The notes beneath the pieces are model-generated. The model made no database searches and was not told the origin of the DNA. It worked only from the letters and a program-made list of their open reading frames with translations. Positions 16,882 to 33,768 of a stretch of DNA of 64,000 nucleotides are shown here, piece by piece (within the stretch, counting starts at the first letter, position 1; every line of letters begins with the position of its first letter). Made by a program: the position numbers and the translations under genes. This stretch comes from Candidatus Nanopelagicales bacterium (GTDB taxonomy: Bacteria > Actinomycetota > Actinomycetes > S36-B12 > JBBRLC01), in contig JBBRTC010000003.1 in NCBI GenBank assembly GCA_038244765.1, positions 1,332 through 65,331 of the forward strand. Direction: 5' to 3'.

Positions 16882-17352
16882 TCAGGATTCCAAACCAAGG
16901 CGCATGTGCGTGCTCGTCGCCCTAAATCCCAACGACTGGTAAAGAAACCGCGCGACGTCGTTATTGGCCCACACATTGAGGTGGACCGCCCCTGCGCCAG
17001 CGATTCTCGCTTCCGTTGTCAGGGCCTCCATCGCTGCGCGACCCAAACCTCGTCCCCTAAACGCCTTGAAAATTTCGACGTCGCTCAGGTGCAGAACACA
17101 CAACCCGTCCTCCACCTGCACACGCCAAATGAGTGAGCCAACGACGTGTCCCTCGGATTCGACATGCCGCCAGTCGTTGTCTTCGTTGGCCGCGACGGAG
17201 TCGTAGTCACGGTTGGCCTTGACGCGTGCTTGGGCGGCGTCGAGCGCTCCGGCGCGGACAATGTCGGTGATGTACCCCTCGACTGCGTGATCGCGGTAGA
17301 TGCGCTTCTCGCCGATAGTCATCTTGCGCAGAACGACTACTGGCGCCTTCAT
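16882..17352 (-). CDS. GNAT family N-acetyltransferase
   Basis: Acetyl-CoA motif FRGRGLGRAAMEAL. 156 aa. 4-nt overlap with the upstream gene. Confidence 0.8.
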   Translation of the reverse strand: MKAPVVVLRKMTIGEKRIYRDHAVEGYITDIVRAGALDAAQARVKANRDYDSVAANEDNDWRHVESEGHVVGSLIWRVQVEDGLCVLHLSDVEIFKAFRGRGLGRAAMEALTTEARIAGAGAVHLNVWANNDVARFLYQSLGFRATSTHMRLGLES

Positions 17353-18176
17353 GGGTCGAGGTCCTCACCGGATCGTTCGGCGAATGTTGCCGCGATCTGG
17401 GCAGTGATTGGCCCCGGAGCTGCCAGCTGGGCGGCGTCAACTTCGTGGACGGGGTGCACATCGCGCGTTGACGAAGTGAGAAAGACTTCGTCTGCAGCGA
17501 CCAGGTCGTCCATGGACAAGTCCGCCTCGACCGCATCGGTCCACTCGAGCACCAACTCGCGAGTGATTCCGGGCAACGCTCCACTGGCCAGAATTGGCGT
17601 GAGCGCGACCCCGTCGCGGACAATGAATATGTTGGAACCTGTTCCTTCGCACAGTTGACCCGCGGTGTTGGCCAGGATCGCTTCCGATGCGCCTTGACTC
17701 TTTGCCCGCGCCAAGGCGACGACGTTCTCGGCGTACGACGTCGTCTTGAGTCCGGTGACGGATGAGTGCTCATTGCGGCGCCAAGGAACAGTCGCGATGG
17801 TCGTCGTCGCGGGCCATGGCTTGGACGCCGAAGCGGCAACGAGCAAGGTCGGTGCGCCGGTCCCGCGGTCGGAGCCGAGTGCCGATTCGCCCGCTGTGTA
17901 GGTGATCCGTAGTCGCGCAAAACCCCCGAGTCCCTCGCGGTTGGCCGCCACGACCTCGTCGATCGCTCGGCGTACCAGATCGGACCGTGGGGCCACTAGC
18001 CCGAGGCCCGCGGCTGAGTCACCGAGCCGGCGCAGATGACGCGAGACGGCGAATGGCTGACCGCCGACAATCTTCAGCGTCTCAAAGACCCCATCAGCGA
18101 CCGTTAACCCTCGATCGAAAACCGAGACGTGGGCATCGCGCTCGTCGACGAGCGAGTCGCCGATCCAAACCAACAC
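17349..18176 (-). CDS. Class IV aminotransferase family, aminodeoxychorismate lyase-like
   Basis: DRGLTVADGVFETLK..., typical PabC/IlvE-fold N-terminus. Immediately downstream of a PabB-like gene. Confidence 0.75.
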   Translation of the reverse strand: MLVWIGDSLVDERDAHVSVFDRGLTVADGVFETLKIVGGQPFAVSRHLRRLGDSAAGLGLVAPRSDLVRRAIDEVVAANREGLGGFARLRITYTAGESALGSDRGTGAPTLLVAASASKPWPATTTIATVPWRRNEHSSVTGLKTTSYAENVVALARAKSQGASEAILANTAGQLCEGTGSNIFIVRDGVALTPILASGALPGITRELVLEWTDAVEADLSMDDLVAADEVFLTSSTRDVHPVHEVDAAQLAAPGPITAQIAATFAERSGEDLDP

Positions 18177-18185
18177 GCAGTCCTC

Positions 18186-19238
18186 CTATCGGCTGGGAGC
18201 CTCCCACGAGCCCGCAGCGACCTGAAGCAGGTGGGCAGCCTTCACCTCGGTCTCGTCCCACTCGTCGCCGGGATCACTTCCCCACGTGATGCCCGCCCCG
18301 GTGCCGAAGTGGAGCAAGTCCCCTTCACGCCAGAACGTTCGGATACCCACCGCGAGTTCTCCGATCTGATGGTCGGCGTCCACCCAACCGATCGCACCGC
18401 AGTACGGCCCGCGTTCGGCGGTCTCGAGGTCTTCGATGATTTTGACGGCGCTGGACTTCGGCGCACCGCTCACGGAACCCGGCGGGAAGGAGGCACCGAT
18501 CAATTCGCTCCACCCGCATTCTTCGCGCAAGTTGCCCGTCACCGTTGAGACCAGGTGAACTAAACCGGGATGCGACTCCTCGACAAGAAGCTCGGGAACG
18601 TGAACCGAACCGGTTTCACAGACCACGCCCAGATCGTTGCGCACGAGGTCGACAATCATGATGTTTTCCGCTTCATCCTTGGCAGCGAAATGGCCTGCGG
18701 CACGAGCGGTTCCCTTGATCGGGCGCGACCGCACGACCGGTCCGCGTCGCCCGAGATACAACTCCGGCGATGCGGATACCACCTGCACTCCCGCGTCGGG
18801 CAAGTTCGCGTGCGCATAGCCATCGACGGAGATGACTCCACCGTAGGGCGCGGGATTTCCCTTTCGTACCAGTCGATGTAGGCCGGTGATATGCGCCCCG
18901 GCGCGGTGATCTGGAAGCGATGTCGAGAGAACTCGACAGATGTTGACTTGATACACGCTCCCCTGTGCGATGAGTTCTCGTACGTCGCTTACGCGAGCGA
19001 GATAGTCCTCACGTGTCATCGACGACGACCATTCGTTGGCCGAGGGTCCGACCCAGCTTCCGCCCGGCAGTTCGTCGCGACGTACGTCGGCGAAGCGCAG
19101 GCAGACGATGTCACCTTCGTAGGTGATTCGTACCGCCCACCAACCTGTCGAGTCCAGCGCCGTGAGATCAGCGGTGACGTCGACAAGTTCGCGCGCGACG
19201 AAATCACCAAATGATGCAACGGCAAGCGATGCGTCCAT
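18186..19238 (-). CDS. Chorismate-binding enzyme, aminodeoxychorismate synthase component I-like (short form, 350 aa)
   Basis: Chorismate-binding core: SASPELYL, PIKGTA, SGAPK, ERGPYCGAIGW, GAGITWGSDP. Confidence 0.75.
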   Translation of the reverse strand: MDASLAVASFGDFVARELVDVTADLTALDSTGWWAVRITYEGDIVCLRFADVRRDELPGGSWVGPSANEWSSSMTREDYLARVSDVRELIAQGSVYQVNICRVLSTSLPDHRAGAHITGLHRLVRKGNPAPYGGVISVDGYAHANLPDAGVQVVSASPELYLGRRGPVVRSRPIKGTARAAGHFAAKDEAENIMIVDLVRNDLGVVCETGSVHVPELLVEESHPGLVHLVSTVTGNLREECGWSELIGASFPPGSVSGAPKSSAVKIIEDLETAERGPYCGAIGWVDADHQIGELAVGIRTFWREGDLLHFGTGAGITWGSDPGDEWDETEVKAAHLLQVAAGSWEAPSR

Positions 19239-19247
19239 GGCACGCCG

Positions 19248-20186
19248 TCAGACTGGATGCAGTCGGGTAGCCAGTCCGGCTGCGAACTCGAGCACGCACA
19301 ATGCGGCGAGCCGGACGGTCCTGCCATCCGCGGCGTCGGCCGTCGCATCGACTTCGGTGATATCGACCGACACCACTCGCGGGTCACAGCCGATCACATA
19401 CGCGGCCCGCCGCAACTCGTCGGCCGATATGCCGCCCGGCGCGGACGCCGGACAGCCCGGTGCCACCGACCGATCACATACATCGACGTCGATGTCAACG
19501 TGGATCGGACCGCCTCCGCCGGCCGCGACGTCAATCGCTTCACTGAGCGCCACCTCGACGCCACGTCGTCCCACATCGGCGCGCGAGATCACGGTGATCC
19601 CGTAGTCACGGGCTCGTAGGGAATAGTCCGGTGAATTCGCGAAGTCGCTAATTCCCACTTGGGCGACATGCGCACCGTTCAAGCCTGACTCGATGAGCCG
19701 GCGTACGGGCGAACCATTGCTGATCCCATCCCGTACGTCGTGATGCGCGTCCAGAGTGACCAGGCCAGCCGTCGCCAACTGAGTCCCGAACGAGCCCGAT
19801 GCGACGGAGTACGTCGCAGAGTTGTCGCCTCCGAGCGCTACTACCAGTGCCGCGCGGGTTCTCGCGCCCTCGATCGCCGATCGAACTCGCGCCTCACCGA
19901 ATTCGCCGTCGGGTTCGTCGATGTCGCCGAGGTCCGCAACGCCTAGCGCATGCAGGTCGTGTCCGTGGCCGCTCAGTGAGTACCGGCTCAGGGCCGCGCG
20001 TACAGCCGCCGGGGTCTGGGCCGCGCCTGTCGCTGAGATCGACGTACGCCACGTCGGCACTCCGATGACTGCGAGATCAAGCCGCCACTGCGGGATTTCG
20101 TCGATGACCGAGCCCAACCACGTACTTGCTCGGGGCCATAAGGGATCGTGCGGCGGGCTCGCGGACGCGTCGTTGACGGAAGGCAC
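19248..20186 (-). CDS. Arginase/agmatinase/formimidoylglutamase (ureohydrolase) family protein
   Basis: Metal-site motifs GGDNS (variant of GGDHS), DAHHD, DIDVDVCD. Confidence 0.75.
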   Translation of the reverse strand: MPSVNDASASPPHDPLWPRASTWLGSVIDEIPQWRLDLAVIGVPTWRTSISATGAAQTPAAVRAALSRYSLSGHGHDLHALGVADLGDIDEPDGEFGEARVRSAIEGARTRAALVVALGGDNSATYSVASGSFGTQLATAGLVTLDAHHDVRDGISNGSPVRRLIESGLNGAHVAQVGISDFANSPDYSLRARDYGITVISRADVGRRGVEVALSEAIDVAAGGGGPIHVDIDVDVCDRSVAPGCPASAPGGISADELRRAAYVIGCDPRVVSVDITEVDATADAADGRTVRLAALCVLEFAAGLATRLHPV

Positions 20187-20287: not shown

Positions 20288-20359
20288 GCGGACGTGGCTC
20301 AGTGGTAGAGCATCACCTTGCCAAGGTGAGGGTCGCGGGTTCGAATCCCGTCGTCCGCT
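20288..20359 (+). tRNA. tRNA-Gly (anticodon GCC)
   Basis: gcggacg acceptor, tcacc-TTGCCAA-ggtga anticodon arm, gcggg-ttcgaat-cccgt T arm. CCA not encoded. Confidence 0.9.
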
Positions 20360-20392
20360 CGAAGGATCCCCGACTTGTCGGGGGTTCGTTTC

Positions 20393-20463
20393 GGTGGAGT
20401 GGCCGAGAGGCGAGGCAACGGCCTGCAAAGCCGTCTACACGGGTTCAAATCCCGTCTCCACCT
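20393..20463 (+). tRNA. tRNA-Cys (anticodon GCA)
   Basis: ggtggag acceptor, acggc-CTGCAAA-gccgt anticodon arm, T loop ttcaaat. CCA not encoded. Confidence 0.9.
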
Positions 20464-20529
20464 CGCGCAAGTCTCGCGGACCCTGGGTTAGCGCCAGGTG
20501 CCGCGATACCCACGACTTGCGAGTTGTAC

Positions 20530-20604
20530 GGGCGATTAGCTCAGTGGGAGAGCGCTTCCCTGACACGGAAGAGGTCACTGGTTCAATCCCAGTATCGCCC
20601 ACCA
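20530..20604 (+). tRNA. tRNA-Val (anticodon GAC), CCA encoded
   Basis: gggcgat acceptor, cttcc-CTGACAC-ggaag anticodon arm, actgg-ttcaatc-ccagt T arm, ...atcgcccacca 3' end. Confidence 0.9.
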
Positions 20605-20844: not shown

Positions 20845-21840
20845 TTACGCGCAGGGGAAACTGGCGGCGAGGACGTCACCACGCCGGCGGAAGTCGAGAA
20901 ACTGATCGCGGATCGCGCTGACAGCAACCTCGAGTGGAAATATCGTCTGCGTCACGAGCATGGTCGGGTTGGTTACGGCTACGGGGTGCCAGAAGACACC
21001 GTCGGCCGTCACGCACACCTCAGGCAGGACTGACTCCCGAGTGATGATGATCCCGTCGGTCGCGAATCCCTCGGAGGCCACGCGGCGCACAATCATGTCG
21101 CTGGACGCGAGGCCCAGTGTCGCGCACAGATCCGCTACGGCCGTCTCGTTTTGTGGTGAACCGGCAGGGATGGTGGAAGCCAGACGCACCCTAAAGCCGA
21201 GATCTCGTGCGACTCGCACGCCGGCGATGGCCTTGGCCCACGAGCCCAGTCCTCTCTGAGCATCGTGCACGTCGGGGGTCGGACTGTCCACGCTGATCTG
21301 GAGCACAAAGTCTGTACGTGGCATCGAATCCAGAACGGCTCTCCGCGCCCCGCTGAACAGCATCCCATTCGTGAGCAGGACCGTTGGTGCGACGCTGACA
21401 CAAGTCGTGACGATCTGCGCGAGATCAGGGTGGAGAAAGGGTTCCCCCCCCGTGAGGTAGATCTCCTTCGTCCCGAGAGCCGCTGCCTGCTCGACCAGCT
21501 TCGAAACCATGCCCACCTCGATCGACCTGGGCTGGGCTTGCGGTGAGGACTCGGCGCAGCAGTACGCGCACGCAAGATTGCAGTGGAAGTTGGTGTAGAT
21601 CCAGAGTCGGTAACCCGGCATCCGCTCCGGGGGGATCGACGCAGCAGCGTCCGACAGCGAACCTCGGTAGATTTCAACGGCGTCGGGATGGACAGCAAGC
21701 ACCGAACTGCCGTTGGCGCGACACCAACGGTCGATGTACTCCACCTCATCTTGCGTTCGGGCTGACACCGACGTTGTCGAACCGGCAGCCGTGGCGCCAA
21801 CAGCGCGCACCAACTCGATAGCCAAGGAGGCACGATTCAC
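20845..21840 (-). CDS. Radical SAM enzyme with ~85-90 aa N-terminal extension, no SPASM-type Cys cluster (function unknown)
   Basis: CX3CX2C (FHCNLACAYCC), GGE motif (YLTGGEPFLHP), LLTNGML. Only 3 widely spaced Cys follow the core. Start set to GTG 21840, 4 nt after the upstream stop; the ORF track's longest start at 21969 overlaps the upstream gene. Confidence 0.8.
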   Translation of the reverse strand: MNRASLAIELVRAVGATAAGSTTSVSARTQDEVEYIDRWCRANGSSVLAVHPDAVEIYRGSLSDAAASIPPERMPGYRLWIYTNFHCNLACAYCCAESSPQAQPRSIEVGMVSKLVEQAAALGTKEIYLTGGEPFLHPDLAQIVTTCVSVAPTVLLTNGMLFSGARRAVLDSMPRTDFVLQISVDSPTPDVHDAQRGLGSWAKAIAGVRVARDLGFRVRLASTIPAGSPQNETAVADLCATLGLASSDMIVRRVASEGFATDGIIITRESVLPEVCVTADGVFWHPVAVTNPTMLVTQTIFPLEVAVSAIRDQFLDFRRRGDVLAASFPCA

Positions 21841-21844
21841 CGGG

Positions 21845-22645
21845 CTACCACCGGAAGGAGATATTCTGCTCCGCGACAGCCTCGAACAATGAGGCGTAGC
21901 CGTCCAGATGGGGTTCAACCCAGCGCGTGAGCCCTTCGAGCTCCAGGATCGTTCGGTGCTCGGGCACATCCCAGTCCATCGCCAGGAGGTGTTTCACCCA
22001 TGGGTCTGTCAATTCCGGATCGATCCGCGCGAGCGCGGTGAAGTTGCAGTGCGAGTACATCGGGCTCGTCCAGAACGCCTCGACGCCTACGTCGCCCGCG
22101 CTGTTCAACTGGTTCCAGGTCGAGATCCCCAACGCGGCGGCGTCCGCCTCGTCATCGAGGACGGCCTGGAGCGCGTCTAGTTCGCTGCGGCCCGTGTCGC
22201 CATGCTTGCCCACGTCGGAATCGAACGCGACCATAGTGATATCGGAGAGCACGCCACTATCGGCGAGGTACTTGGTCGGGAGGATCCGTGCCTGACCCGA
22301 GTCGCGGCTGCCGAGGGCTACGCGCTGCCCAGCGAGGGACTCCAACGATGTGTAGCCGGAACCGGTGCGTGCGACGAACACGGACTGGAAGGTGACGTCG
22401 GTGTCGCGCATGGCCAGTGCCCGGCAGGTGCCGTTGGTGAGACCGACGGTGCGCACGTAGGCGAGATTCGTGTTCCACGCGACATCGATGCTCCCCGCTA
22501 GGAGAGCGTCGACCTGGCGCTCATAGTTGGAGAACAAGACGAAGTCCATGTCGACTGGAGCACCACGAAAGTATTCGCGGATGCCTTCCCAGATAGGGAC
22601 CACGTTCGCGGTGTAGGCCACTGCCCCGACCGTCAGGGTCGTCAC
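21845..22645 (-). CDS. PhnD-type (phosphonate-binding family) periplasmic-binding-protein-fold protein without signal peptide
   Basis: YERQVDALLAGSIDVAWNTNLAYV...FVARTGSGYTSLESLAGQRVALGSRDSGQARILPTKYLADSG is typical of PF12974-like proteins. The N-terminus runs straight into the first beta strand with no leader or lipobox. GTG 22645 overlaps the upstream stop (GTGA). Confidence 0.7.
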   Translation of the reverse strand: MTTLTVGAVAYTANVVPIWEGIREYFRGAPVDMDFVLFSNYERQVDALLAGSIDVAWNTNLAYVRTVGLTNGTCRALAMRDTDVTFQSVFVARTGSGYTSLESLAGQRVALGSRDSGQARILPTKYLADSGVLSDITMVAFDSDVGKHGDTGRSELDALQAVLDDEADAAALGISTWNQLNSAGDVGVEAFWTSPMYSHCNFTALARIDPELTDPWVKHLLAMDWDVPEHRTILELEGLTRWVEPHLDGYASLFEAVAEQNISFRW

Positions 22646-23769
22646 CCGAACAACTCCATCCCGCACAGCGCACGCGCGTAGAGGTCATAGAGGACGTCGG
22701 ATGTGGGGGCCATGACGTGCCCTGCCCGGGCATCACGGAAGTAGCGCTCCATCGGCAGGTGCTTAGAGAACGCCGCACCACCACAGACCCGCATGGCCTC
22801 ATCGATAATCGCGATGGCTGCGTCATTGGCACTGGCTCGAGAGCCGATTACATGAAGTAGCGTTGTGTCATCGGGCTCGGCGATCTTGCGGGCCGTCTCT
22901 CGTAGATAAGCGCGCTGCGCAGCCAGAGAGACACCGGCCGCGCCGATTCTGTGGCGGATCGTCGGCAAGTCGGCCAGCGAGGAACCCAAGTGCTCAAGCC
23001 GCGCACTCGTCACGTGACCCACAGCAGCGTCGACAGCCGCAGCAGCCAGCCCGAGGGTGACCGCGGCATTGCCGAGGTTAAACCACGGCAGTACGGCACC
23101 CATCATTGTCGCGAACCCCGAGCCGGGCGCCCCGAGTCGCGCGGACTCCGCGACCGTCGTGTCGAAACTCATCGGTGACGAAGCGTTTCCTCGCAGGCCG
23201 AGCGCCGACCACGGGGCAGCCACCTTGATACCGGAATCCGTTCCCAGAACCGCGTACAGGTCGGTCTCGGTCGCGCTGGACGCGTCAGCTGACTGGGTGC
23301 TCACCACATAGAGGTCCGCGTAGCCGGCGGATGTCACCCAACTCTTCTCCACTTGGAGAAGGACGCCATCGGCACCGCGTACGCATTGTGAGACCGGCGC
23401 CCAGAAGTGGCTGCGTGAACCGCGCTCGCTAAACGCAAGCGTTCCGAGCGTGCTCCCGTCGGCAAGACGAGCAGGGAGGTCCGGGTACGCCGAGGGCGTC
23501 GAGTTCAGGACCGGCATCGTCGCGGCCACGTGCATCAAATAGATCATCGCGGTCGAGCCGCACGCGCCGGCAAGCTGACTGATCACGTCGAGAAACGCCT
23601 CCGGCCCTTCTCCCAGCCCGCCCAACTCCCGCGGGATTGGGAGGCCGAGGAGCCCAGAGGCCCGCAGGGCCCCCACGGCACTGGCGGGGAAGGCGCCCTC
23701 CTCGTCGACAGCCGCGGCCGAGGATCGTGCCGCTTCGAGAACCGGTTCAAGCCGAGTCTGCAAGTCCAT
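22642..23769 (-). CDS. Acyl-CoA dehydrogenase-fold flavoprotein (possibly monooxygenase-type; MCAD-type catalytic Glu not conserved)
   Basis: ACAD N-, middle and C-terminal domain pattern (FPASAVGALRASGLLGL, EKSWVTSAG, RVCGGAAFSKHLPMERYFRDARAG). Start at ATG 23769 (MDLQTRLEP...). Confidence 0.75.
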   Translation of the reverse strand: MDLQTRLEPVLEAARSSAAAVDEEGAFPASAVGALRASGLLGLPIPRELGGLGEGPEAFLDVISQLAGACGSTAMIYLMHVAATMPVLNSTPSAYPDLPARLADGSTLGTLAFSERGSRSHFWAPVSQCVRGADGVLLQVEKSWVTSAGYADLYVVSTQSADASSATETDLYAVLGTDSGIKVAAPWSALGLRGNASSPMSFDTTVAESARLGAPGSGFATMMGAVLPWFNLGNAAVTLGLAAAAVDAAVGHVTSARLEHLGSSLADLPTIRHRIGAAGVSLAAQRAYLRETARKIAEPDDTTLLHVIGSRASANDAAIAIIDEAMRVCGGAAFSKHLPMERYFRDARAGHVMAPTSDVLYDLYARALCGMELFG

Positions 23770-23857
23770 CGAATGAATTCCATTCCGTTGTATCGAGCCC
23801 AACATGTTCATGCAGGGCAAGCAGTCAGGAGGCGAGGCCTCGGAGTGAAGAAATCTA

Positions 23858-23890
23858 GTCCCGAGTCGATGTCCCGAGTCGATGTCCCGA
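23858..23890. repeat. Tandem 13-nt direct repeat (2.5 copies) in a divergent promoter region
   Basis: GTCCCGAGTCGAT GTCCCGAGTCGAT GTCCCGA, in a locally AT-richer spacer between the ACAD-like gene (minus) and doxX (plus). Confidence 0.85.
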
Positions 23891-24159
23891 CCAAAGTTTT
23901 CTAGACCGTATCGGTGGTCAGGATTTATGCAAGCGGGGTCTCGCTACTTCGTAAGATCCTCGTAACTCCCTGCGGTGCAGAGTTGGAATGCTTGGAATCC
24001 CGGTCGGCTAGTCTCTGCGGGTGGATGGTCGCCACAGTGTGAATCTGCACGTCGATGGTGGAAGCCGCGCGCAGCGAAGGACGCCGCGCGGTATGTCGAT
24101 GCGCCTAGGCCAGCCCGGCTCCCGTCCTTGCCCCACTCATCTCTCCTGAGGAGCGCGTC

Positions 24160-24723
24160 ATGACTACCTCCACCAAGAGCACGAGTCCGCCGCCGACTTC
24201 GGACGTCGAGTCCGGTCCAGCTCGCGATCGCGCCACCTACGTCACCGCGGTCTTCGTACGGGTGGTGGTGGCGCTGCTCTGGCTGGACAACCTCGACTGG
24301 AAGAAGCCACCGGACTTCGGCCAGAACAACAATGCAGGTCTCTACGAGTTCACGGCCGACGCGGTCAAGTACCCGGTGTTCCCGCCGTTCTCGAGCCTTG
24401 TGGAGCACGTGATCCTGCCGCACTTCACCTTATTCGCGTGGGGCGTATTCATCGTCGAGATCTGCTTGGGGACCTTCCTGCTATTGGGGCTGGCCACTCG
24501 CTTGTGGGCGGTCGTCGGGATGGGTCAGGCCCTGGCGATCTATCTGTCGATCGGAGCGACTCCGGGCGAGTGGAAGTGGAGTTACTTCCTGCTGATCGCC
24601 GCACTCGCCGCTGTCCTTGGCCTAGCAGCCGGTCGCGTCTGGGGGCTCGACTCTGTACTGCGTCGCCGGATCGGCGCTGACCCCCGCGGGCGCGTGGCAC
24701 GGCTCTACCTGCGGATTTCGTGA
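24160..24723 (+). CDS. DoxX family membrane protein
   Basis: 4-TM small membrane protein. GAGGAG lies 8 nt before the ATG. GTGA overlap with the next gene. Confidence 0.65.
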   Translation: MTTSTKSTSPPPTSDVESGPARDRATYVTAVFVRVVVALLWLDNLDWKKPPDFGQNNNAGLYEFTADAVKYPVFPPFSSLVEHVILPHFTLFAWGVFIVEICLGTFLLLGLATRLWAVVGMGQALAIYLSIGATPGEWKWSYFLLIAALAAVLGLAAGRVWGLDSVLRRRIGADPRGRVARLYLRIS

Positions 24724-26273
24724 CCGGAGTCGACTCGGTCGGGCTCGCCGACGCGCGCAGAGGCCTCGCCTCCTCGGGTCCGGCGGCGTACAAGTGGACG
24801 GAACGCGCGCTGGTCGTTATCTCGTTCGTCCCGATGCTTGCGTTCGTCGCAGTTGCGCTGCGTCGGATCACCTATCCCTACGAGCTCTCCTACGTCGAGG
24901 GCAGTGTGGCCGAGGTCGTTGCACGGGTCTCGGACGGTGCGGCGATCTACGGGCCACCCTCTGCGGCTTTCACGCCGTGGCCCTACCCGCCGGGTTACTT
25001 CTGGCTGGCCTCCGGCGTCGCCCGTGTCACGGGGACGGACCTGCTCGCAGCGAGGATCGTCTCCTTCACAGCGTCGATCGTCATCTTGGTCTTCCTCGCG
25101 TTGATCGTGCGCTCGGTGACGGGGAGCGTGGTCGGTGGAATCGTCGCTTCCGGGATCTACGCCGCCACATACTGGGTCACGGACACATGGGCGGACACCG
25201 CGCGAGTGGACTCCCTGCTCCTCGCATTCCTGCTCCTGGCCGTCCTCGTCGCCCTGCGAGCACGCACCGCGTTCGCGGGCGTGCTGGTGGGCCTTTTGCT
25301 GCTGGCTGCGTTCCTCACGAAGCAGACGGCTCTGATCGCAGCCGCTCCCATGCTCGTTGTGCTGATCGTCGGACGACGACGGACCGGGGTCGCGGCGCTT
25401 TGCGTCCTCCTCGCTGGCGTCGCGATGACGACGCTGGTCGGGAACGCGACGACGGACGGCTGGTACTCGGTTTACGTATTCGAACAGTTGGCAGGTCAGG
25501 GCTGGAGTCCGAAAGACCTCTACCAGTTCTGGTTCATCGACCTGCTGGTGCCGTTCGCGGTGACTGCGATCGCCACCTTGACGTTGCTGGTGCGTGCGCG
25601 GCCAATCAGTCGACGACGGGTGAGCGCCGACTACCCGACCGCCGTGGTGGCGGCAGCCACCGTTGGCTTCGTGCTGGCGGCGTGGGTGGGTCGGCTGCAT
25701 GAAGGAGGTACGGTCAACGTCGTTCTGCCGGCCTACGCCGCGGTCGCGCTGCTCATCGGCTGCGCAACGGCCGCCCAACTCGCCCGACCTCGACCTTCGG
25801 TCGCCCTGACGCCGCCGTTGGTTGCGGCTCTCGTACTCGCTCAGGTCCTGCTGCTCCTCGCGTGGTCGCGGCCGAGGGCCATACCCACTTCGGCAGACGG
25901 CCGTGCTGGCGACAGGCTGATCTCGTTGCTCGCTTCCGCGCCCGCGGGGGTCGCGGTCCCGAGCCACCCCTACTACGCACGACTTGCGGGAAAGCGTCCC
26001 GGCGCGGCGCTCTTCGCCGTGGAGGACGTATTGCGCGGCGGGCCGACCAGAGCGAGGTCGTCGCTGGTCGCTCAGCTGCCGTGGTCGCTCGCTGGCATCG
26101 ACATCGTCGTACTTGACGACGCGACCCACACCCGATACTTCGGCCCGGATCTGACGCGCGACTTCCAGCTGAGGGCCGGACCGCTCTTCGATGGCGACGA
26201 TTTCTACCCGGTCACCGACTACCCGTCGCGGCCCGAACTCGTGTTCATACGCAAAGGGGTCGTGCTTCGATGA
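24720..26273 (+). CDS. Polytopic GT-C fold membrane glycosyltransferase (PMT_2/ArnT-like)
   Basis: 517 aa, roughly 11-13 hydrophobic helices. N-terminal loop YPYELSYVEGSV... and a C-terminal soluble domain. Operon context with GT2. Confidence 0.6.
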   Translation: MTGVDSVGLADARRGLASSGPAAYKWTERALVVISFVPMLAFVAVALRRITYPYELSYVEGSVAEVVARVSDGAAIYGPPSAAFTPWPYPPGYFWLASGVARVTGTDLLAARIVSFTASIVILVFLALIVRSVTGSVVGGIVASGIYAATYWVTDTWADTARVDSLLLAFLLLAVLVALRARTAFAGVLVGLLLLAAFLTKQTALIAAAPMLVVLIVGRRRTGVAALCVLLAGVAMTTLVGNATTDGWYSVYVFEQLAGQGWSPKDLYQFWFIDLLVPFAVTAIATLTLLVRARPISRRRVSADYPTAVVAAATVGFVLAAWVGRLHEGGTVNVVLPAYAAVALLIGCATAAQLARPRPSVALTPPLVAALVLAQVLLLLAWSRPRAIPTSADGRAGDRLISLLASAPAGVAVPSHPYYARLAGKRPGAALFAVEDVLRGGPTRARSSLVAQLPWSLAGIDIVVLDDATHTRYFGPDLTRDFQLRAGPLFDGDDFYPVTDYPSRPELVFIRKGVVLR

Positions 26274-26941
26274 GCGACCCGATGTCCATCGCTTCGGTGG
26301 ACGTGATTCTACCCGTCCTGGACGAAGCGGCGGCGCTCCCGTGGGTGCTCGGCCGGATGCCCGTCGGCTACCGCCCGATCGTCGTCGACAACGGATCGAC
26401 GGACGGTTCGGCCGAGATCGCCCGGGCCCACGGGGCCCGCGTGGTCGTGGAACCCATACGGGGATTCGGTGCCGCATGCTTCGCCGGCTTAATGGCGTGC
26501 GAGAGCGCCGTCATTGCCTTCATGGACGCTGATGCGAGCCTGGATCCCGAGGAACTCGATGCCGTCGTCAGACCCGTAGTGGACGGCGCGGCTGACCTGG
26601 TACTCGGAGCCCGCATCCACGCCCCGGGCGCGTGGCCACTGCACGCCAGGGTCGCGAACCGACTATTGGCGAGCGAGGTCCGCCGCCGCTGCGGTGTCCG
26701 GCTGACCGACCTGGGTCCCATGCGTGCGGCTCGGCGGGAGGACCTCGAGTCGCTCGGGCTGGTAGACCGGCGCTTCGGGTGGCCGCTAGAGATGGTCGTC
26801 AAGGGCGCGCGGGCAGGGTGGCGGATTCACGAGGTGCCGGTGGGCTACCACCCGCGGCTCGGTAGGTCCAAGGTCACGGGCACCGTTCGCGGGACGATGC
26901 GAGCCGTACACGACATGGCCGCAGTCCTCCGGACGTCATGA
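26270..26941 (+). CDS. GT2 family glycosyltransferase (polyprenyl-phosphate sugar synthase-like)
   Basis: VDVILPVLDEAAALP...IVVDNGSTDGSAEIA...FMDADASLDP (GT-A DXD region). ATGA overlaps on both sides. Confidence 0.8.
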   Translation: MSDPMSIASVDVILPVLDEAAALPWVLGRMPVGYRPIVVDNGSTDGSAEIARAHGARVVVEPIRGFGAACFAGLMACESAVIAFMDADASLDPEELDAVVRPVVDGAADLVLGARIHAPGAWPLHARVANRLLASEVRRRCGVRLTDLGPMRAARREDLESLGLVDRRFGWPLEMVVKGARAGWRIHEVPVGYHPRLGRSKVTGTVRGTMRAVHDMAAVLRTS

Positions 26942-27603
26942 TGCACCTCATCGTCATGGCGAAGTCACCCCTGCCGGGCCGGGTCAAGACCCGCTTGTGC
27001 CCGCCATTGCGGTCAGCGGAGGCGGCGGAGCTGGCGCTGGCGTCGCTGCTCGACACCCTGGACGCCGTGCGTGCGTCCCGTGCCGCGCAGTGGATACTCG
27101 CGCTGGACGGTCCGCCCGGGACGTGGCTTCCCTCCGGCTTCGACGTCCTTCCTCAGCGCGGCGCCGGTCTAGGCGAGCGGCTGGCCAACGCGTGGACCGA
27201 TGTTGGAGGGCCGGGCCTCCTGATCGGGATGGACACGCCCCAAGTGACGGCCCAACTACTTGACGATGCGATGGATCAGTTGGCCGACGGCGATCGTGCA
27301 TCGGTCCTGGGCCTGGCGACGGACGGCGGTTGGTGGGCCATCGGCCTGCACCAGTCGGATCCCGCAGTCTTCACCGGCTTGACGCTGAGCACGCCGGACG
27401 CGGGCTCGGCGCAGATGGAGCGACTGGTTCTACTCGGGCTGCGACCGACCTTGCTCCCCCGGCTGCGTGACGTCGATACCTGGGTCGACGCTCAGGCGGT
27501 GGCCGCGGAAACGACCGGCACCCGATTCGCGTCGGCCGTCCACGAGTTGTCTGGACGGCTCACGTCCCGGGCCGCCGACGAAGGGAAGGCCGCGCAGCGA
27601 TGA
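26938..27603 (+). CDS. DUF2064 (TIGR04282-like, nucleotidyltransferase-fold) protein
   Basis: MMHLIVMAKSPLPGRVKTRLCPPL... and GMDTPQV are characteristic of DUF2064. Confidence 0.75.
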   Translation: MMHLIVMAKSPLPGRVKTRLCPPLRSAEAAELALASLLDTLDAVRASRAAQWILALDGPPGTWLPSGFDVLPQRGAGLGERLANAWTDVGGPGLLIGMDTPQVTAQLLDDAMDQLADGDRASVLGLATDGGWWAIGLHQSDPAVFTGLTLSTPDAGSAQMERLVLLGLRPTLLPRLRDVDTWVDAQAVAAETTGTRFASAVHELSGRLTSRAADEGKAAQR

Positions 27604-28658
27604 AGGTTCTCGTAACCGGAGGCGGCGGGTTCATCGGGTCGCACATCGTCGACGCTCTCGTCGACGAGGGCATCGACACGGTTAGCGTCGACGTCTTCGC
27701 GCCGACGGCGCACCTGCGACCACCCGAGTACTTAAACCCCGCCGCGGATCACCGTCGGGTGTCCATGACCGACCTCGAGTCGCTCATGCGCGCGCTGGAC
27801 GGAGTCGACGCCGTCTGCCACCAGGCGGCCAGGGTCGGGCTCGGCGTGGACTTCGACGACGTCGTGGACTACGTGAACGACAACTCGTCGGGGACGGCGA
27901 CGTTGCTGAAAGCGTTGCACCGGGTTGGTTTTGCCGGTCGTTTCGTCCAGGCGTCGAGCATGGTGGTCTACGGCGAGGGGGCCTACACGTGCGACGAGCA
28001 CGGCGGGGTCGCACCGGCTCCGCGACGCGCAAGGGACCTTGAAGCCGGGGTGTTCGAGCCGACCTGCTCGGCCTGCGGCCGCCCGCTGACCCCTGCCCTT
28101 GTCACAGAGGACGCGATCCTCGACCCGCGCAACGTCTACGCCGCTACGAAGGTCAACCAGGAGCACCTGTCCTGGTGCTTTGCACGCACGAGCGGTGCCG
28201 ATGTCGTCAACCTCCGTTACCACAACGTCTATGGGCCGCGAATGCCGCGCGATACGCCCTACGCAGGCGTGGCGAGCATCGTGCGGAGCGCCCTCGAGGC
28301 GCAGCGCCCGCCACACGTGTTCGAGGACGGCGGCCAGCGTCGTGACTTCGTGCACGTGACCGACGTGGCGCGGGCCAATGTGCTTGCGCTGACGACGAGT
28401 AAGACCGTCGCTGGCGCCTACAACATCGCCTCCGGACGTCCCTGCACGATCGCGGAGATGGCGTCGCTGGTCGCCGAGGGTTTTGGTGCGGGCGCGCCGC
28501 CACCGATCGTTACCGCGGAATACCGCCTCGGTGACGTGCGTCATATCACGGCCTCGCCTGCCCGGGCCCACGAGGTGTTCGGATTTGCCGCGCGAGTGCC
28601 GTTCGAGGTGGGGCTTCGGGCGTTCGCGACCACTCCGATGCGCGAGTCCGTGACCTGA
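27600..28658 (+). CDS. NAD-dependent epimerase/dehydratase (SDR) family protein
   Basis: MKVLVTGGGGFIGSHIVDAL (GxxGxxG) and YAATKVNQE (YxxxK). Confidence 0.85.
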   Translation: MKVLVTGGGGFIGSHIVDALVDEGIDTVSVDVFAPTAHLRPPEYLNPAADHRRVSMTDLESLMRALDGVDAVCHQAARVGLGVDFDDVVDYVNDNSSGTATLLKALHRVGFAGRFVQASSMVVYGEGAYTCDEHGGVAPAPRRARDLEAGVFEPTCSACGRPLTPALVTEDAILDPRNVYAATKVNQEHLSWCFARTSGADVVNLRYHNVYGPRMPRDTPYAGVASIVRSALEAQRPPHVFEDGGQRRDFVHVTDVARANVLALTTSKTVAGAYNIASGRPCTIAEMASLVAEGFGAGAPPPIVTAEYRLGDVRHITASPARAHEVFGFAARVPFEVGLRAFATTPMRESVT

Positions 28659-28684
28659 GGGTCGTCTGGTTGGTTGTTCGGTGC

Positions 28685-29479
28685 TCAGTCCGGCCGGCAG
28701 CCCGAGCACTCGCCTGCGGGCGGAAGGAGCCCGACGGTTGCTCGGAGCAGTTCGCGCATCCGCTGCGTGGACTGCGCGAACGTCGCCAGGACCTCCTGGA
28801 CGCTGACGCCGTCGCCTTCGTGCACGCCCGCGTCCAGATCCGTGACAAGGCCCACTGAGGCGAAACAGATTCTTCGCTCGCGTGCCAGTACGGCCTCGGG
28901 GTGTCCAGTCATGTTGATCAGCGACCAGCCCTGTGCCGCGAAGAACTGCGACTCGGCGCGCGTCGAGAAGCGCGGACCGTCGATGACGACGAGGGTTCCA
29001 CCGTCCCGTGCCGGCCAGTCCTGTAGGCGGGCCGCGGCGAGCACACTGCGTCGCACCGATGCGCAGTAGGGGTCGGCGAACCGAGCATGCTCGGGCACGG
29101 AAGCGAACTCGTCGTGAAAACTTTGAGGGCGGCCTCTGGTCCAGTCGACCAATTGGTCGGGCACCACGAGGTCGCCCGATGTCATCCCTGACTCGAGTCC
29201 GCCGACCGCGTACGGCGCCACGATCTGCCGAACTCCGAGTTGGTCGAGCGCGTCGATGTTCGCACGGTAGTTCACTTGGTGCGGGGGGTACTCGTGGCTC
29301 AGCCCATGGCGCGGGAGGAACGCAACACTTCGTCCGTCGACCTCGGCGATGGTGACGGGCGCCGACGGAGAGCCATAGGCAGTCGGCACCGCCACAGCGC
29401 GTGCGCTGTCGAACAGTTCGTACAGTCCGGATCCACCGATGATCCCGACCTGCGCCTTGGGCTGGGCGGATGGAGCCAT
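28685..29479 (-). CDS. mtnP: S-methyl-5'-thioadenosine phosphorylase
   Basis: VGIIGGSGLYEL..., LPRHG, INMTGHPEAVLARE: typical MTAP/PNP family. Confidence 0.85.
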   Translation of the reverse strand: MAPSAQPKAQVGIIGGSGLYELFDSARAVAVPTAYGSPSAPVTIAEVDGRSVAFLPRHGLSHEYPPHQVNYRANIDALDQLGVRQIVAPYAVGGLESGMTSGDLVVPDQLVDWTRGRPQSFHDEFASVPEHARFADPYCASVRRSVLAAARLQDWPARDGGTLVVIDGPRFSTRAESQFFAAQGWSLINMTGHPEAVLARERRICFASVGLVTDLDAGVHEGDGVSVQEVLATFAQSTQRMRELLRATVGLLPPAGECSGCRPD

Positions 29480-29639
29480 GTCACGTTCACCTCTGTCGTG
29501 GATAGGCGGTCGCGTGTCGTTGCTAGGCGGTCACGGGCGTGCACGATCACGCCTGGAATGCGATCCAAGCATCCCAGGCCCGGATGTCCTCGACGGCCAG
29601 GTCCTCCATGGATGGATCACGAAGAGTTGTGATGCTCCG

Positions 29640-30488
29640 GTGGATGTGAACCTCCAGCCTCGAGCGTACGGTCGAAGGGTGCAGGTCCCTTACTCGTTGT
29701 CGCTGCGCGGGCCCAACCGCCGCCCGCTGATCGCAGCGATCGGCGTCGTGCTCGTGCTCGCAGTCGCTGGCGGCGTCTGGCCGCGCTCCTCGAGCGAGAT
29801 GGCGCCAATCGCCAACCAGACCCGGCTCGGGCCGGTCATTCTGGTGCCCGGGTACGGCGGCGGGACTGACAGCCTCGACAATCTCGCTGTCCGGCTGCGC
29901 AGCGTCGGTCGTACCGCCATCGTGCTTCGACTCGCCGGCGACGGGACCGGCGACCTGCAGGTGGAGGCCATCCTGCTCAAGAGCGCCGCCGATGCGGCGA
30001 TCGCCGGCGGCGCGCCCTCGGTTGACATCGTCGGGTACTCGGCCGGCGGAGTCGTCACGAGGCTCTGGGCCGACGAGCTCGGCGGCGCCGTTCATGCCCG
30101 CCGCATCGTGCTCCTTGGCTCGCCGAACCACGGCACGGATGTCGCCGCGCTGGGAGCGACTCTCGGTGGGTCGCTCTGCCCCGCCGCCTGCCAGCAGTTG
30201 GCACCCGACAGCGATCTGCTGGGTAGGTTGAACGGCGACGACGAGACGCCGGCCGGCCCTCAGTGGGTCAGTATCTGGACACGCCAGGACCAGGTGGTGA
30301 CCCCACCGGACTCCGCCAGGCTCAACGGCGCGGTCAACATCGTCGTCCAGGACGTGTGCCACGGTGTTTCAGTGGACCACAGTTCGCTGCCTACCGATCC
30401 GGCCATGCAGGGCCTCGTTCTGCGTGCCCTCGGCGTGCCGCTCATGATCGTCCCGCCTCCTGCCGACTGTGCCGCCCTGACGTCCTGA
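29640..30488 (+). CDS. Secreted alpha/beta hydrolase, lipase family (start approximate)
   Basis: TM/signal segment (LIAAIGVVLVLAVAGG), PVILVPGYGGG, nucleophile elbow GYSAGG. The longest ORF start at 29439 would overlap divergent mtnP, so GTG 29640/29646 is preferred. Confidence 0.7.
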   Translation: MDVNLQPRAYGRRVQVPYSLSLRGPNRRPLIAAIGVVLVLAVAGGVWPRSSSEMAPIANQTRLGPVILVPGYGGGTDSLDNLAVRLRSVGRTAIVLRLAGDGTGDLQVEAILLKSAADAAIAGGAPSVDIVGYSAGGVVTRLWADELGGAVHARRIVLLGSPNHGTDVAALGATLGGSLCPAACQQLAPDSDLLGRLNGDDETPAGPQWVSIWTRQDQVVTPPDSARLNGAVNIVVQDVCHGVSVDHSSLPTDPAMQGLVLRALGVPLMIVPPPADCAALTS

Positions 30489-30598
30489 TCTCGGCGCAGG
30501 GCACGGACTCGCCCCGCTCGACTCGAGTCTCACGGTGGTGATCCGTCCACTGGGCTGGCTGGCGCCCGCCAGTTGATGAGTTGGCCTGTTGGGCCTCA

Positions 30599-31405
30599 CT
30601 AACTCGTGATGTCTTTGGTCATGAAGTTGGCCCAGGCAGCGCCGATCAGGACCAGCACATACACCCCTTGGACGAGCGTGCCGCGCTCGATGTCGCTCCA
30701 GAGGATCGGGTCACGGAAGAGGTCCACCCACGCCAGCCAGTACCGCGTCGGCAGGTACGGCTTCACGGCGTTGGCTGCGTCGAGGGTGACGAGCACCTCG
30801 CTGAGCACCAGCGCCGCAAGCGCACCGATCGCGGCGCCGAGCGACGAGTCTGTGATGGTCGACAGCAGTAGCGCGATCGACGCGACACCGACCATCGACC
30901 AGGCGATGTAGAACACGACCACGGCAGTGCGTTGGACCACCTGAGCCGTGGTTAGTGGTTGGCCCGATAGCGACGTGGCCAGCGGCTGCGACCCGAAGAG
31001 CGAGATCCCGATGGCGTACGCCGTGACAGCCACCGCACTGACCGAGATGAACAGGAATACCAGCACCGCGACCAGCTTGGCCACAAGCAGCCGGGTCCGC
31101 CCCACCGGCCGGACGAGCAGGTAGCGCAGTGTCCCGGTCGCCGCTTCGCCGGCGATGGAGTCGCCGGCGATGACCGCGACGGCAACGGGCAAGAACAGCG
31201 GCAGCACGATCCCGAGTGCAGCCGCAGGGAACAGCGATCCGTTTGCAAGCACGGCCGACAGAAAGGCTGGTCCCTCACCGGGACGCGGACCCAGCTGGGT
31301 GACCCGCAGCAGCACAGCGACGATGGCCGGAAGCAGGCACAGCAGCAGGATCGAGATCCAGGTACGAGGCCGACGCATGAGTTTGCTGATCTCGACTCGG
31401 ATCAT
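30599..31405 (-). CDS. ABC-2 type transporter permease
   Basis: Six-helix hydrophobic profile. 4-nt overlap with the upstream ATPase. Confidence 0.75.
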   Translation of the reverse strand: MIRVEISKLMRRPRTWISILLLCLLPAIVAVLLRVTQLGPRPGEGPAFLSAVLANGSLFPAAALGIVLPLFLPVAVAVIAGDSIAGEAATGTLRYLLVRPVGRTRLLVAKLVAVLVFLFISVSAVAVTAYAIGISLFGSQPLATSLSGQPLTTAQVVQRTAVVVFYIAWSMVGVASIALLLSTITDSSLGAAIGALAALVLSEVLVTLDAANAVKPYLPTRYWLAWVDLFRDPILWSDIERGTLVQGVYVLVLIGAAWANFMTKDITS

Positions 31406-33455: not shown

Positions 33456-33768
33456 GATTCACCGTACATGCCGCTTGCACGAGGAAGTGCTCCCTCGACG
33501 GGTCCGCGGCTGGACCGGGGTGCGCTGCGCTCGCGGACAATTCGCGCTTGTCCGGGGCGGGTCGTGTTCTCGGGACGGACATCAGTTGGGCTGCAGGTCG
33601 GTTGCGACGGTTTGATGCTGGGCGATGATCTACCACCCCCTGACGACGTCAAGGGACGTGTCGGAAGCCTTGAAGTCGCGAGCGTCTTCCTCGGCAACCT
33701 CGATCACGATGCGGTGACTGCTGGGTTAGACCGGTCGCGGCACAGGGAGTCCCGGGTAAGACTGGGGT

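Follow-up and report, generated by a model that had tools for sequence, protein, structure and literature searches.

A gene trio related to Mycobacterium tuberculosis fadE16-Rv1680-moeX and a putative methylthioxylose-type sugar operon in a Candidatus Nanopelagicales bacterium

We analysed a stretch of 64,000 nucleotides (nt) from a Candidatus Nanopelagicales bacterium (assembly GCA_038244765.1, contig JBBRTC010000003.1, positions 1,332 to 65,331 of the forward strand), referred to below as the window, and focused on three adjoining minus-strand genes which encode an acyl-CoA dehydrogenase (ACAD)-fold flavoprotein, a PhnD-fold binding protein and an enzyme of the radical S-adenosylmethionine (SAM) type. 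The elements of this trio and of its upstream region are located as follows, protein lengths being given in amino acids (aa).

22642-23769, minus strand: gene of the ACAD-fold flavoprotein, Rv1679/FadE16-like, 375 aa, with the Pfam domains Acyl-CoA_dh_N/M/1/2.
21845-22645, minus strand: gene of the leaderless PhnD-fold (type II periplasmic-binding-protein fold) binding protein, Rv1680 family, 266 aa, GTG start.
20845-21840, minus strand: gene of the radical SAM enzyme, Rv1681/MoeX family, 331 aa, GTG start, PF04055.
21616-21840, minus strand: N-terminal domain of the radical SAM protein, about 75 aa, predicted α-β-α-β-β.
21559-21582, minus strand: CX3CX2C cluster motif of the radical SAM protein (C87, C91, C94), followed by C95, as read from the sequence.
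20851-21015, minus strand: C-terminal region of the radical SAM protein with C276 (PEVCVT), G281, W284-H285-P286 and FPCA (C330), invariant in 95 sequences.
23770-24159, no strand: intergenic (promoter) region from which the trio and an operon led by a DoxX-like gene diverge, GC 0.587.

The initial annotation had described three closely packed minus-strand genes, and both junctions can be read directly in the sequence. The TGA stop of the flavoprotein gene and the GTG start of the binding-protein gene overlap as GTGA at 22642-22645 (gggtgacg), and a 4-nt gap at 21841-21844 separates the TAG stop of the binding-protein gene from the GTG start of the radical SAM gene (tggtag cccg gtg). Within the maximal open reading frame (ORF) of the flavoprotein gene, 22642-23820, the ATG at 23769 (MDLQTR...) agrees with the start of the family model and with the N-termini of homologues. 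From this arrangement, co-transcription of the three genes would be expected. The tRNA-Gly/Cys/Val genes lie at 20288-20604 on the plus strand, convergent with the trio and 240 nt beyond the end of the radical SAM gene. The upstream intergenic region is poorer in GC than the trio operon (0.643) and the whole window (about 0.63), and it carries a perfect 13-bp x 2.5 tandem repeat (GTCCCGAGTCGAT) at 23858-23890 (TRF score 66); coordinates, GC content and TRF all agree with the earlier mention of a neighbouring tRNA cluster and of an AT-richer upstream region with a tandem repeat. Lying between the trio and the DoxX-led operon, this repeat is a candidate operator for some regulator. At the gathering threshold Rfam returned four tRNAs only, with nothing credible in 23700-24250, where a riboswitch or RNA leader was sought, and a scan for promoters and terminators gave no signal above the shuffled expectation. 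The source sequence was matched in sediment-metagenome DNA runs only.

The three proteins were compared with family models. The binding protein scored 431.6 bits against NF049985 (SBP_like_Rv1680; cutoff 400) over model positions 2-268 of 268, and the radical SAM protein 422.3 bits against NF049973 (radical_Rv1681; cutoff 380) over positions 3-326 of 326. The flavoprotein matched NF049984 (Rv1679_FadE16) over its full length with 575.5 bits (E = 5e-173), which just missed the cutoff of 600; its orthology to the Rv1679 family is argued from synteny and from a family-wide VMAPT motif. As judged by these matches, the trio is a local copy of the fadE16-Rv1680-moeX (Rv1679-Rv1681) module of M. tuberculosis, with which it shares families, gene order and tight coupling, as well as the presence of a DoxX-like gene, found in M. 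tuberculosis at the Rv1678 position. The two arrangements differ in that the DoxX-like gene of the window is divergent and heads a sugar operon, whereas the reference arrangement places it before the ACAD gene. The combination is not new, since NCBIfam curators have catalogued it as a set, functionally uncharacterised. The earlier statement that the trio belongs to no described pathway therefore stands as regards function, but not as regards novelty, the set having its NCBIfam models already. In the literature, moeX has been listed among urine antigens or biomarkers and in proteomic and transcriptomic tables.

One genome per species was scanned for relatives of the radical SAM protein, and gene neighbourhoods were analysed at the best 80 loci. 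At least 569 species genomes encode such a relative. These hits range over the Actinomycetes and the Acidimicrobiia, and relatives of the binding protein also occur in Dormibacteraeota. At the best 80 loci, the ACAD, binding-protein and radical SAM genes are collinear on one strand wherever upstream DNA suffices, with an extra gene between the first two at one locus (L012). The ACAD and binding-protein genes stand a median 16 nt apart (n = 66), and the binding-protein and radical SAM genes overlap by 7 nt in the median (n = 74). Co-occurrence outside the source genome, which had been set beforehand as a test, was thus found, and the preserved spacing and collinearity bear out the view that the three genes form a coupled unit. 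Copies of the module were also seen on large plasmids or megaplasmids, in Rhodococcus opacus (pHG203, locus L060), Mycolicibacterium (L161) and Miltoncostaea (L162), indicating that it is sometimes plasmid-borne.

HMMER alignment of the flavoprotein to human short-chain acyl-CoA dehydrogenase (SCAD) and to 8i4p placed VMAPT on IYEGT, with alanine in place of the catalytic glutamate. The alignment to SCAD agrees with the earlier by-eye placement of this substitution, which is family-wide, as 59 homologues show a conservation of VMAPT of at least 95%; the GG..F and RDAR motifs that flank it are retained. At the position that holds the base in long-chain acyl-CoA and isovaleryl-CoA dehydrogenases (LCAD/IVD, helix G), a glycine was found by eye on the SCAD alignment. 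A classical acyl-CoA dehydrogenase was therefore rejected, as the catalytic glutamate is missing at both the YEGT and the LCAD/IVD positions, and its loss would leave this ACAD-fold flavoprotein unable to use the classical dehydrogenase mechanism. The next-best ACAD hidden Markov model (HMM) matches included 3-sulfinopropanoyl-CoA desulfinase, SfnB and DszC, all far under their family cutoffs, and the PDB matches included nitrososynthases, with ordinary SCADs scoring at least as well. An ACAD fold without the classical glutamate is common to the window protein and to DszC, SfnB, the nitrososynthases KijD3, ORF36 and DnmZ, and 3-sulfinopropionyl-CoA desulfinase; the DszC/SfnB/nitrososynthase group acts on sulfur or nitrogen heteroatoms, and some of its members on nucleotide sugars. 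The likeness to ACAD-fold monooxygenases has its limits, however, as the family scores are far too low and true SCAD-type dehydrogenases rank higher in the PDB.

The binding protein matches PF12974 and was modelled with a predicted local distance difference test (pLDDT) score of 94.7. Its first β-strand starts at residue 3 and its homologues are 262-296 aa long, which argues against a leader. No ABC permease or ATPase gene recurs beside its gene at the best 80 loci, where the radical SAM gene adjoins it wherever upstream sequence suffices; the nearest ABC genes of the window are of the ABC-2/MutG type and lie about 8 kb away (30599-32331). Foldseek retrieved PhnD (phosphate, phosphite or methylphosphonate), PtxB, HtxB, ArrX and AioX at a template modelling score of about 0.7, and we counted these closest folds, all binders of phosphate, phosphite, phosphonate or arsenic oxyanions, in favour of an anionic ligand. 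The S-T-S anion motif of PhnD aligns with S-x-Q after an invariant aspartate (D-S-x-Q). The family shows uncommonly strong conservation, with 63-92% identity across orders and 76 invariant columns in 49 sequences, including DxDVGKHGDTG and YxHCNFT. We rejected a PhnD/PtxB-type binding protein of an ABC transporter, given 36.5 and 63.7 bits against TIGR03431 and TIGR01098 (cutoffs 261 and 112), the absent leader and the altered STS motif. Taken together, sequence and model indicate a cytoplasmic protein that serves as a ligand-binding or enzyme subunit, which is what had been proposed from its lack of a signal peptide and of a transporter partner.

When HMMER was run exhaustively with the binding protein as query, 95 representatives were obtained at E ≤ 1e-30. 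At least six long ones (P0281, P0284, P0346, P0349, P0377 and P0386) consist of an Rv1680-type domain fused to a flavin-containing monooxygenase (FMO)-like flavin monooxygenase, and come from diatoms (Skeletonema), a dinoflagellate (Biecheleria), MMETSP transcriptomes and some metagenome contigs. The fused binding domains retain the Rv1680 signatures DxAWN, MRDxD, DSxQ, DxDxGKHGDT, HCxF and LEG..W.P..GY, so that they probably have the same pocket. FMOs oxygenate soft heteroatoms; we know of no function described for the Rv1680-type/FMO fusions. Such a fusion fits a base-less ACAD-fold protein acting as an oxygenase or oxidase on a ligand held by the binding protein.

The radical SAM protein carries HCNLACAYCC and TGGEPF, both invariant in 95 homologues, and 86 aa precede the first cluster cysteine (C87), in line with the canonical CNLACAYC cluster, the GGE motif and the extension of about 85-90 aa read initially. 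The whole protein was modelled with a pLDDT of 86.4. Its N-terminal domain is conserved in the 95 homologues, with the consensus ...G.T..V.V..PDDV..V.RWC.ATGN.VL.V....VEV.RG, and was modelled with a pLDDT of 80-88. Conservation in more than 90 homologues together with a confident model argues for a genuine N-terminal extension, as first proposed, and against a start at the internal methionine of MPGYRL. The suggested comparison with RRE (recognition element)/PqqD folds turned out negative: RRE domains have three strands, then three helices, and the predicted α-β-α-β-β order is not an RRE/PqqD topology. A weak match to PF01206 (TusA/SirA) was found in 5 of 16 members (best E 0.023), and hhalign aligned the domain with E. 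coli TusA in the expected register (E 0.042). The profile of the domain gave only chance hits against the PDB, and the domain has no CPxP active-site cysteine motif of the kind that marks the TusA family. It may represent a degenerate TusA-like fold without the CPxP cysteine.

Beyond the core, no SPASM domain (PF13186) was found in the radical SAM protein at E ≤ 0.01, nor at E ≤ 1. Four cysteines follow CX3CX2C when the adjoining C95 is counted, so that the earlier description, three scattered cysteines and no SPASM cluster, still applies. C95, C276 and C330 are invariant in the 95 sequences, two of these invariant cysteines being C-terminal of the core, and G281 and W284-H285-P286 are invariant as well. 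The copy on a Mycolicibacterium vanbaalenii plasmid has threonine in place of C276. A β-hairpin is predicted at 276-283, and the C-terminal tail bearing C330 is disordered (pLDDT below 50). This region may be a twitch-like hairpin in degenerate form, or else serve redox chemistry or hold an accessory metal. A distant Miltoncostaea (Thermoleophilia) variant of the enzyme has neither the N-terminal domain nor C95, C276, H285 and C330; their joint loss in this single example suggests one functional unit, for instance an accessory metal or redox site.

Foldseek searches with the radical SAM model gave generic core hits only (SkfB, SuiB, BlsE, MoaA, EpeE, viperin and AbmM); sequence and fold neighbours also include PqqE and anSME, with similarity covering the core only, and HpnH was among the HMM matches with 52.6 bits. 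Since the best non-family HMM and PDB matches are peptide-modifying SPASM/twitch enzymes (SkfB, SuiB, PqqE, MftC, ScmE), we considered a system for the maturation of ribosomally synthesized and post-translationally modified peptides. These matches are limited to the radical SAM core, however, the enzyme has no SPASM domain and its N-terminal domain lacks the RRE topology. We found no small ORF conserved across lineages beside the module, and the gene junctions are too tight to hold one. With no conserved precursor ORF, peptide maturation was rejected as very improbable.

A MoaA GTP 3',8-cyclase was likewise rejected, the protein reaching 56 and 58 bits against TIGR02666 and TIGR02668 (cutoffs 284 and 325). 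These weak MoaA matches are one of the few points that speak for the annotations in use for M. tuberculosis, namely a molybdopterin role for MoeX, a phosphonate ABC-transporter role for Rv1680 and a β-oxidation role for FadE16; the others are that all ACAD Pfam domains are present and that a structure-based annotation named Rv1680 a 'putative phosphonate transporter component' (PMC8562490). MoaA scores this far under the cutoffs come without adjacent moa genes. The binding protein has no signal peptide, and at the 80 loci neither a permease nor an ATPase accompanies it; NCBI keeps transporter names off its family by means of a purpose-built 'exception' model. The catalytic glutamate that β-oxidation would call for is absent at both known positions. 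We find it scarcely credible that the legacy names are correct, and the 'molybdopterin', 'phosphonate transporter' and 'FadE' annotations of M. tuberculosis are almost certainly wrong.

The initial annotation overlooked a fourth partner, a DoxX/DoxD-like membrane protein, and with it the adjoining methylthioxylose (MTX)-type sugar operon, which includes a DUF2064 gene near the TIGR04282 cutoff. These neighbours are arranged as follows.

24160-24723, plus strand: DoxX/DoxD-like membrane protein, 187 aa (PF04173 DoxD, PF07681 DoxX).
24720-26273, plus strand: GT-C membrane glycosyltransferase, MtxT-like in role (PF13231 PMT_2), 4-nt overlap with the DoxX gene.
26270-26941, plus strand: GT2 protein resembling polyprenyl-phosphate sugar synthases, with an MtxS-like role (PF00535), 4-nt overlap with the GT-C gene.
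26938-27603, plus strand: DUF2064 protein, nucleotidyltransferase-like fold (PF09837), 4-nt overlap with the GT2 gene.
27600-28658, plus strand: NAD-dependent sugar epimerase/dehydratase (PF01370), 4-nt overlap with the DUF2064 gene.
28685-29479, minus strand, convergent: S-methyl-5'-thioadenosine phosphorylase MtnP (NF005876, 358.3 bits against a cutoff of 306).

A DoxX-like homologue of about 190 aa was detected by tblastn within 10 kb of the trio at 62 of the 80 loci, mostly right before the ACAD gene or after the radical SAM gene, and the protein of the window is 46% identical to that encoded directly upstream of the ACAD gene (the Rv1678 position) on the M. vanbaalenii plasmid. The DoxX/DoxD-like membrane protein is thus the fourth conserved partner of the module.

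The sugar operon was compared with the MTX pathway of M. tuberculosis, for which Angala and colleagues reportedly described in 2017 a cluster of five genes (Rv0535, Rv0536, Rv0539, Rv0540 and Rv0541c). In that pathway MtxS (Rv0539) makes the decaprenyl-phosphate-MTX donor, MtxT (Rv0541c, a GT-C) transfers MTX, and S-methyl-5'-thioadenosine (MTA) is the initial donor (PMC8780516, PMC11127046). The same families stand side by side in the window, and in a membership test for the MTX-type set the MTA phosphorylase, DUF2064 protein, GT2, NAD epimerase and GT-C were all matched. The DUF2064 protein scored 127.6 bits against TIGR04282 ('arsenosugar biosynthesis glycosyltransferase'; cutoff 134), and the GT2 stayed below the cutoffs of AglJ-, dolichyl-phosphate-hexose- and PpgS-type models and reached 35.5 bits against TIGR04283 (cutoff 182). 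On its family content, the stretch 24160-29479, MtnP included, is a complete MTX-type glycan-cap gene set. The arrangement differs from that of M. tuberculosis, where the MTX cluster and Rv1679-Rv1681 are unlinked and the latter have no reported MTX role.

Flanking ORFs of the best 80 loci were then clustered, and neighbours were counted within 10 kb of the trio. The GT2 and DUF2064 pair occurred at 27 of the 80 loci, the epimerase at 20, MtnP at 10 and another PNP_UDP_1 phosphorylase at 4. The linked loci, which differ in gene order, belong to Acidimicrobiia, Micrococcales, Streptomyces, Nakamurella, Kineosporiaceae and others; at one of them (L008) the MtnP match starts 2 nt past the end of the radical SAM match. 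The Miltoncostaea oceani (Thermoleophilia) plasmid NZ_CP064357.1 carries, at 600921-617676, a distant module with sub-threshold relatives of all parts, in an array of DoxX, AhpD-like, Rv1681-like radical SAM, GT2, DUF2064-Nudix, ACAD, binding protein, hypothetical protein and radical SAM/SPASM genes, adjoined by selD, selA and selB. We estimated at less than 1% the chance of finding a single-copy gene within 20 kb in a genome of 4-8 Mb, so that the observed adjacency amounts to an enrichment of roughly 100-fold, again an estimate. Relatives of the DUF2064/GT2/epimerase core abound in metagenomes, with at least 550 confirmed hits. Two further neighbours of the module were noted. A major facilitator superfamily transporter of the aromatic-acid/H+ symporter type adjoins it at L161 (3544-4914), L029, L002, L063 and L008, and is 72-83% identical across Mycolicibacterium, Lolliginicoccus, Nanopelagicales, Cryobacterium and Kineosporiaceae, an exceptionally high identity between orders that suggests a tightly constrained substrate or horizontal transfer along with the module. 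A second radical SAM protein of 527 aa, followed by a methyltransferase-domain protein, is encoded at three distant loci with 72-75% identity (L161 10592-12960, L049 and L067).

The neighbourhood resembles the arsenosugar system (ArsS TIGR04167, DUF2064 TIGR04282, GT2 TIGR04283) in that both combine a radical SAM enzyme of the MoaA/PqqE clade with a DUF2064 protein and a GT2. The two differ as well: the arsenosugar set is not known to have ACAD-fold, binding-protein-like or DoxX partners, and the GT2 of the window is of the polyprenyl-phosphate-sugar synthase type, not TIGR04283. As for the radical SAM protein, ArsS was rejected, with 47 bits against a cutoff of 300 and a match to the core only. 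The earlier verdict that it is not ArsS therefore holds for membership, yet in functional terms this neighbourhood has its closest analogue in the ArsS system: ArsS adenosylates trivalent dimethylarsenite, DMAs(III), giving 5'-deoxy-5'-dimethylarsinoyl-adenosine, DDMAA (PMC13598754), and this 5'-deoxyadenosyl transfer to a heteroatom is a plausible model for the window enzyme. Taken literally, the analogy would have an ArsS-like enzyme adenosylate a metalloid, phosphorus or selenium oxyanion (arsenite, methylarsenite, phosphite, selenium species) delivered by the binding protein, after which MtnP, DUF2064 and GT2 would turn 5'-X-5'-deoxyadenosine into an 'X-sugar'. Besides the ArsS precedent, such a pathway would be in keeping with a binding-protein fold nearest to PtxB, PhnD, ArrX and AioX, with the near-cutoff TIGR04282 score, with a phosphorylase or nucleosidase beside a radical SAM gene as is typical of the adenosylating pathways HpnH/HpnG and MqnE/MqnB, with selD, selA and selB next to the Miltoncostaea locus, and with the fact that the algae harbouring the FMO fusions are known arsenosugar producers. 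It sits badly with the ArsS score, with the altered STS motif and the invariant aspartate in the pocket, and with the recurrent neighbour clusters, among which no ars, phn, pepM or sel genes were found, selD/selA/selB being confined to the single Miltoncostaea locus. The near-universal presence of the module in many actinobacterial lineages would also better suit a housekeeping role in sulfur or sugar metabolism. We regard an oxyanion pathway of this kind as improbable.

Other recurrent neighbours are linked to thiol-disulfide or sulfur redox chemistry: CcdA with a disulfide oxidoreductase, seen at five loci as well as on the M. vanbaalenii plasmid, and also glutaredoxin, AhpD-like, deiodinase-like, CoADR-like, DsbA-like and rhodanese proteins. 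These neighbours would be expected if the module were a stand-alone sulfur or thiol redox system outside sugar-cap synthesis, one that deals with reactive or organic sulfur, for instance in the salvage or detoxification of compounds of the methylthio, persulfide or thiosulfate type. Electrons would then go from the DoxX-like protein to the quinone or thiol pool, as in thiosulfate:quinone oxidoreductase (TQO) and DoxX-SseA, the TusA-like domain of the radical SAM protein would carry sulfur, and the ACAD-fold protein would act like the desulfinase, SfnB or DszC. The match of the membrane partner to DoxD/DoxX, the weak TusA likeness of the N-terminal domain, the sulfur enzymes among the next-best ACAD matches and the lack of sugar genes within 10 kb of most trio loci all go in this direction. 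However, the TusA assignment is statistically weak and without the CPxP cysteine, the sulfur-enzyme scores are far under cutoff and equalled by SCAD-type ACADs in the PDB, and such a system would leave unexplained both the approximately 100-fold enrichment of DUF2064, GT2 and MtnP and the interleaved Miltoncostaea operon. A self-contained redox function is a real possibility, although we consider it rather unlikely.

In the reading that we prefer, and hold only tentatively, the module would be a small-molecule pathway whose substrate, an anionic metabolite, stems from the adenosyl moiety of SAM, and it would supply or tailor a thiopentose glycan-cap route. The substrate would be 5'-methylthioadenosine, 5-methylthioribose-1-phosphate or a related 5-substituted pentose phosphate. 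The module would modify no peptide and transport nothing, but feed or tailor polyprenyl-phosphate-linked methylthio-pentose (MTX-type) caps for envelope glycans. The PhnD-fold protein would be the cytoplasmic subunit that grips the phosphate or oxyanion end of the substrate and hands it to the ACAD-fold flavoprotein, which, lacking the base, would be a heteroatom (most likely sulfur) oxygenase or oxidase and not an acyl-CoA dehydrogenase. One candidate reaction would be the formation of MSX, the sulfoxide of MTX, for which we know of no reported enzyme. In M. tuberculosis, lipoarabinomannan (LAM) bears both MTX and MSX, and MSX is abundant (PMC8531672). The radical SAM enzyme could either transfer 5'-deoxyadenosyl to the substrate in the manner of ArsS or HpnH, a phosphorylase then stripping the adenine, or abstract a hydrogen atom from the pentose; the phosphorylase genes beside it make adenosyl transfer attractive. 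Precedents for such a division of labour exist in the futalosine pathway (MqnA, MqnE, MqnB, MqnD), where a cytoplasmic periplasmic-binding-protein-fold protein serves as an enzyme, and in both this and the hopanoid (HpnH, HpnG) pathway, where a PNP_UDP_1 enzyme trims the radical SAM adenosyl adduct. PNP_UDP_1/MtnP genes likewise adjoin the trio; the likeness is one of logic, as no Mqn or Hpn cutoff was reached, and the initial annotation had set futalosine aside already. Finally, the DoxX-like protein would anchor the enzymes at the membrane or couple them to the quinone or thiol pool, near the lipid-linked sugar machinery. In M. tuberculosis the membrane-anchored PacL1, used as bait, biotinylated MoeX (PMC13043812), a labelling which we counted in favour of membrane proximity.

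Several observations weigh against a role of the module in the thiopentose route. The reverse test started from DUF2064 and covered 26 metagenome loci at least 8 kb long, among which GT2 and the epimerase were each present at 22, and the radical SAM and DoxX genes at one each. The linkage is accordingly asymmetric: real but facultative, with most of the sugar genes lying away from any module. Mycobacterial trio loci have no sugar genes within 10 kb, and the known MTX route of M. tuberculosis needs no radical SAM enzyme. The GT2 and GT-C of the window are likened to Rv0539 and Rv0541c at the family level, their orthology being putative. A flavin reductase, normally required by ACAD-fold monooxygenases, is not conserved at the trio loci, and two of the 80 loci (L029 and L063) are without an ACAD gene. 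As far as sequence comparison goes, the similarities of the radical SAM protein are generic and do not separate adenosyl transfer from hydrogen abstraction. Our literature search on Rv1678-Rv1681, moeX, fadE16 and the family names found no functional study.

A bolder form of the thiopentose proposal is that the Rv1678-Rv1681-type module represents the missing enzymology that diversifies SAM-derived thiopentoses, by combining a binding-protein-guided ACAD-fold S-oxygenase, yielding the MSX-type sulfoxide, with a new radical reaction on the same scaffold. The radical SAM enzyme would perform an ArsS/HpnH-like adenosyl transfer or insert sulfur by means of the C95/C276/H285/C330 site. We consider this doubtful, a speculative extension, but if true, a new class of sugar modification of the cell envelope would be common to M. 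tuberculosis and to most Actinomycetota, and marine algae would possess an FMO-fused counterpart. What remains of the probability after the preferred reading and its four rivals goes to something else.

With at least 569 species-level genomes, M. tuberculosis included, the module is among the more widespread radical SAM systems of Actinomycetota still without a function. The present analysis adds three handles, the DoxX-like partner, the strong but facultative link to MTX-type genes and the fusion of an Rv1680-type domain to a flavin monooxygenase. Since MTX and MSX occur in the LAM of M. tuberculosis and no sulfoxide-forming enzyme is known, the hypothesis can be tested and concerns a glycan of antigenic importance. 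Gene sets of the MTX type prove to be widespread far beyond the mycobacteria, a question that a paper from 2024 called unclear (PMC11127046), and the set in the window bears on whether the modification occurs on anything other than lipoarabinomannan.

Two minor features of the window deserve mention. From the DoxX-led operon on, the GC content is 0.66-0.69 over about 11 kb (24001-35000) and falls sharply to 0.61 at 35001, with flanks of 0.59-0.65; this stretch may have been acquired horizontally as a block, or may be a compositional island. On the other side of the trio, beyond the tRNA cluster, lie a formimidoylglutamase/agmatinase-like gene (19248-20186), a short PabB-like gene (18186-19238) matching model positions 80-355 only, a class IV aminotransferase/PabC-like gene (17349-18176) and a GNAT gene (16882-17352); these four genes at 16882-20186 appear unrelated to the trio module.

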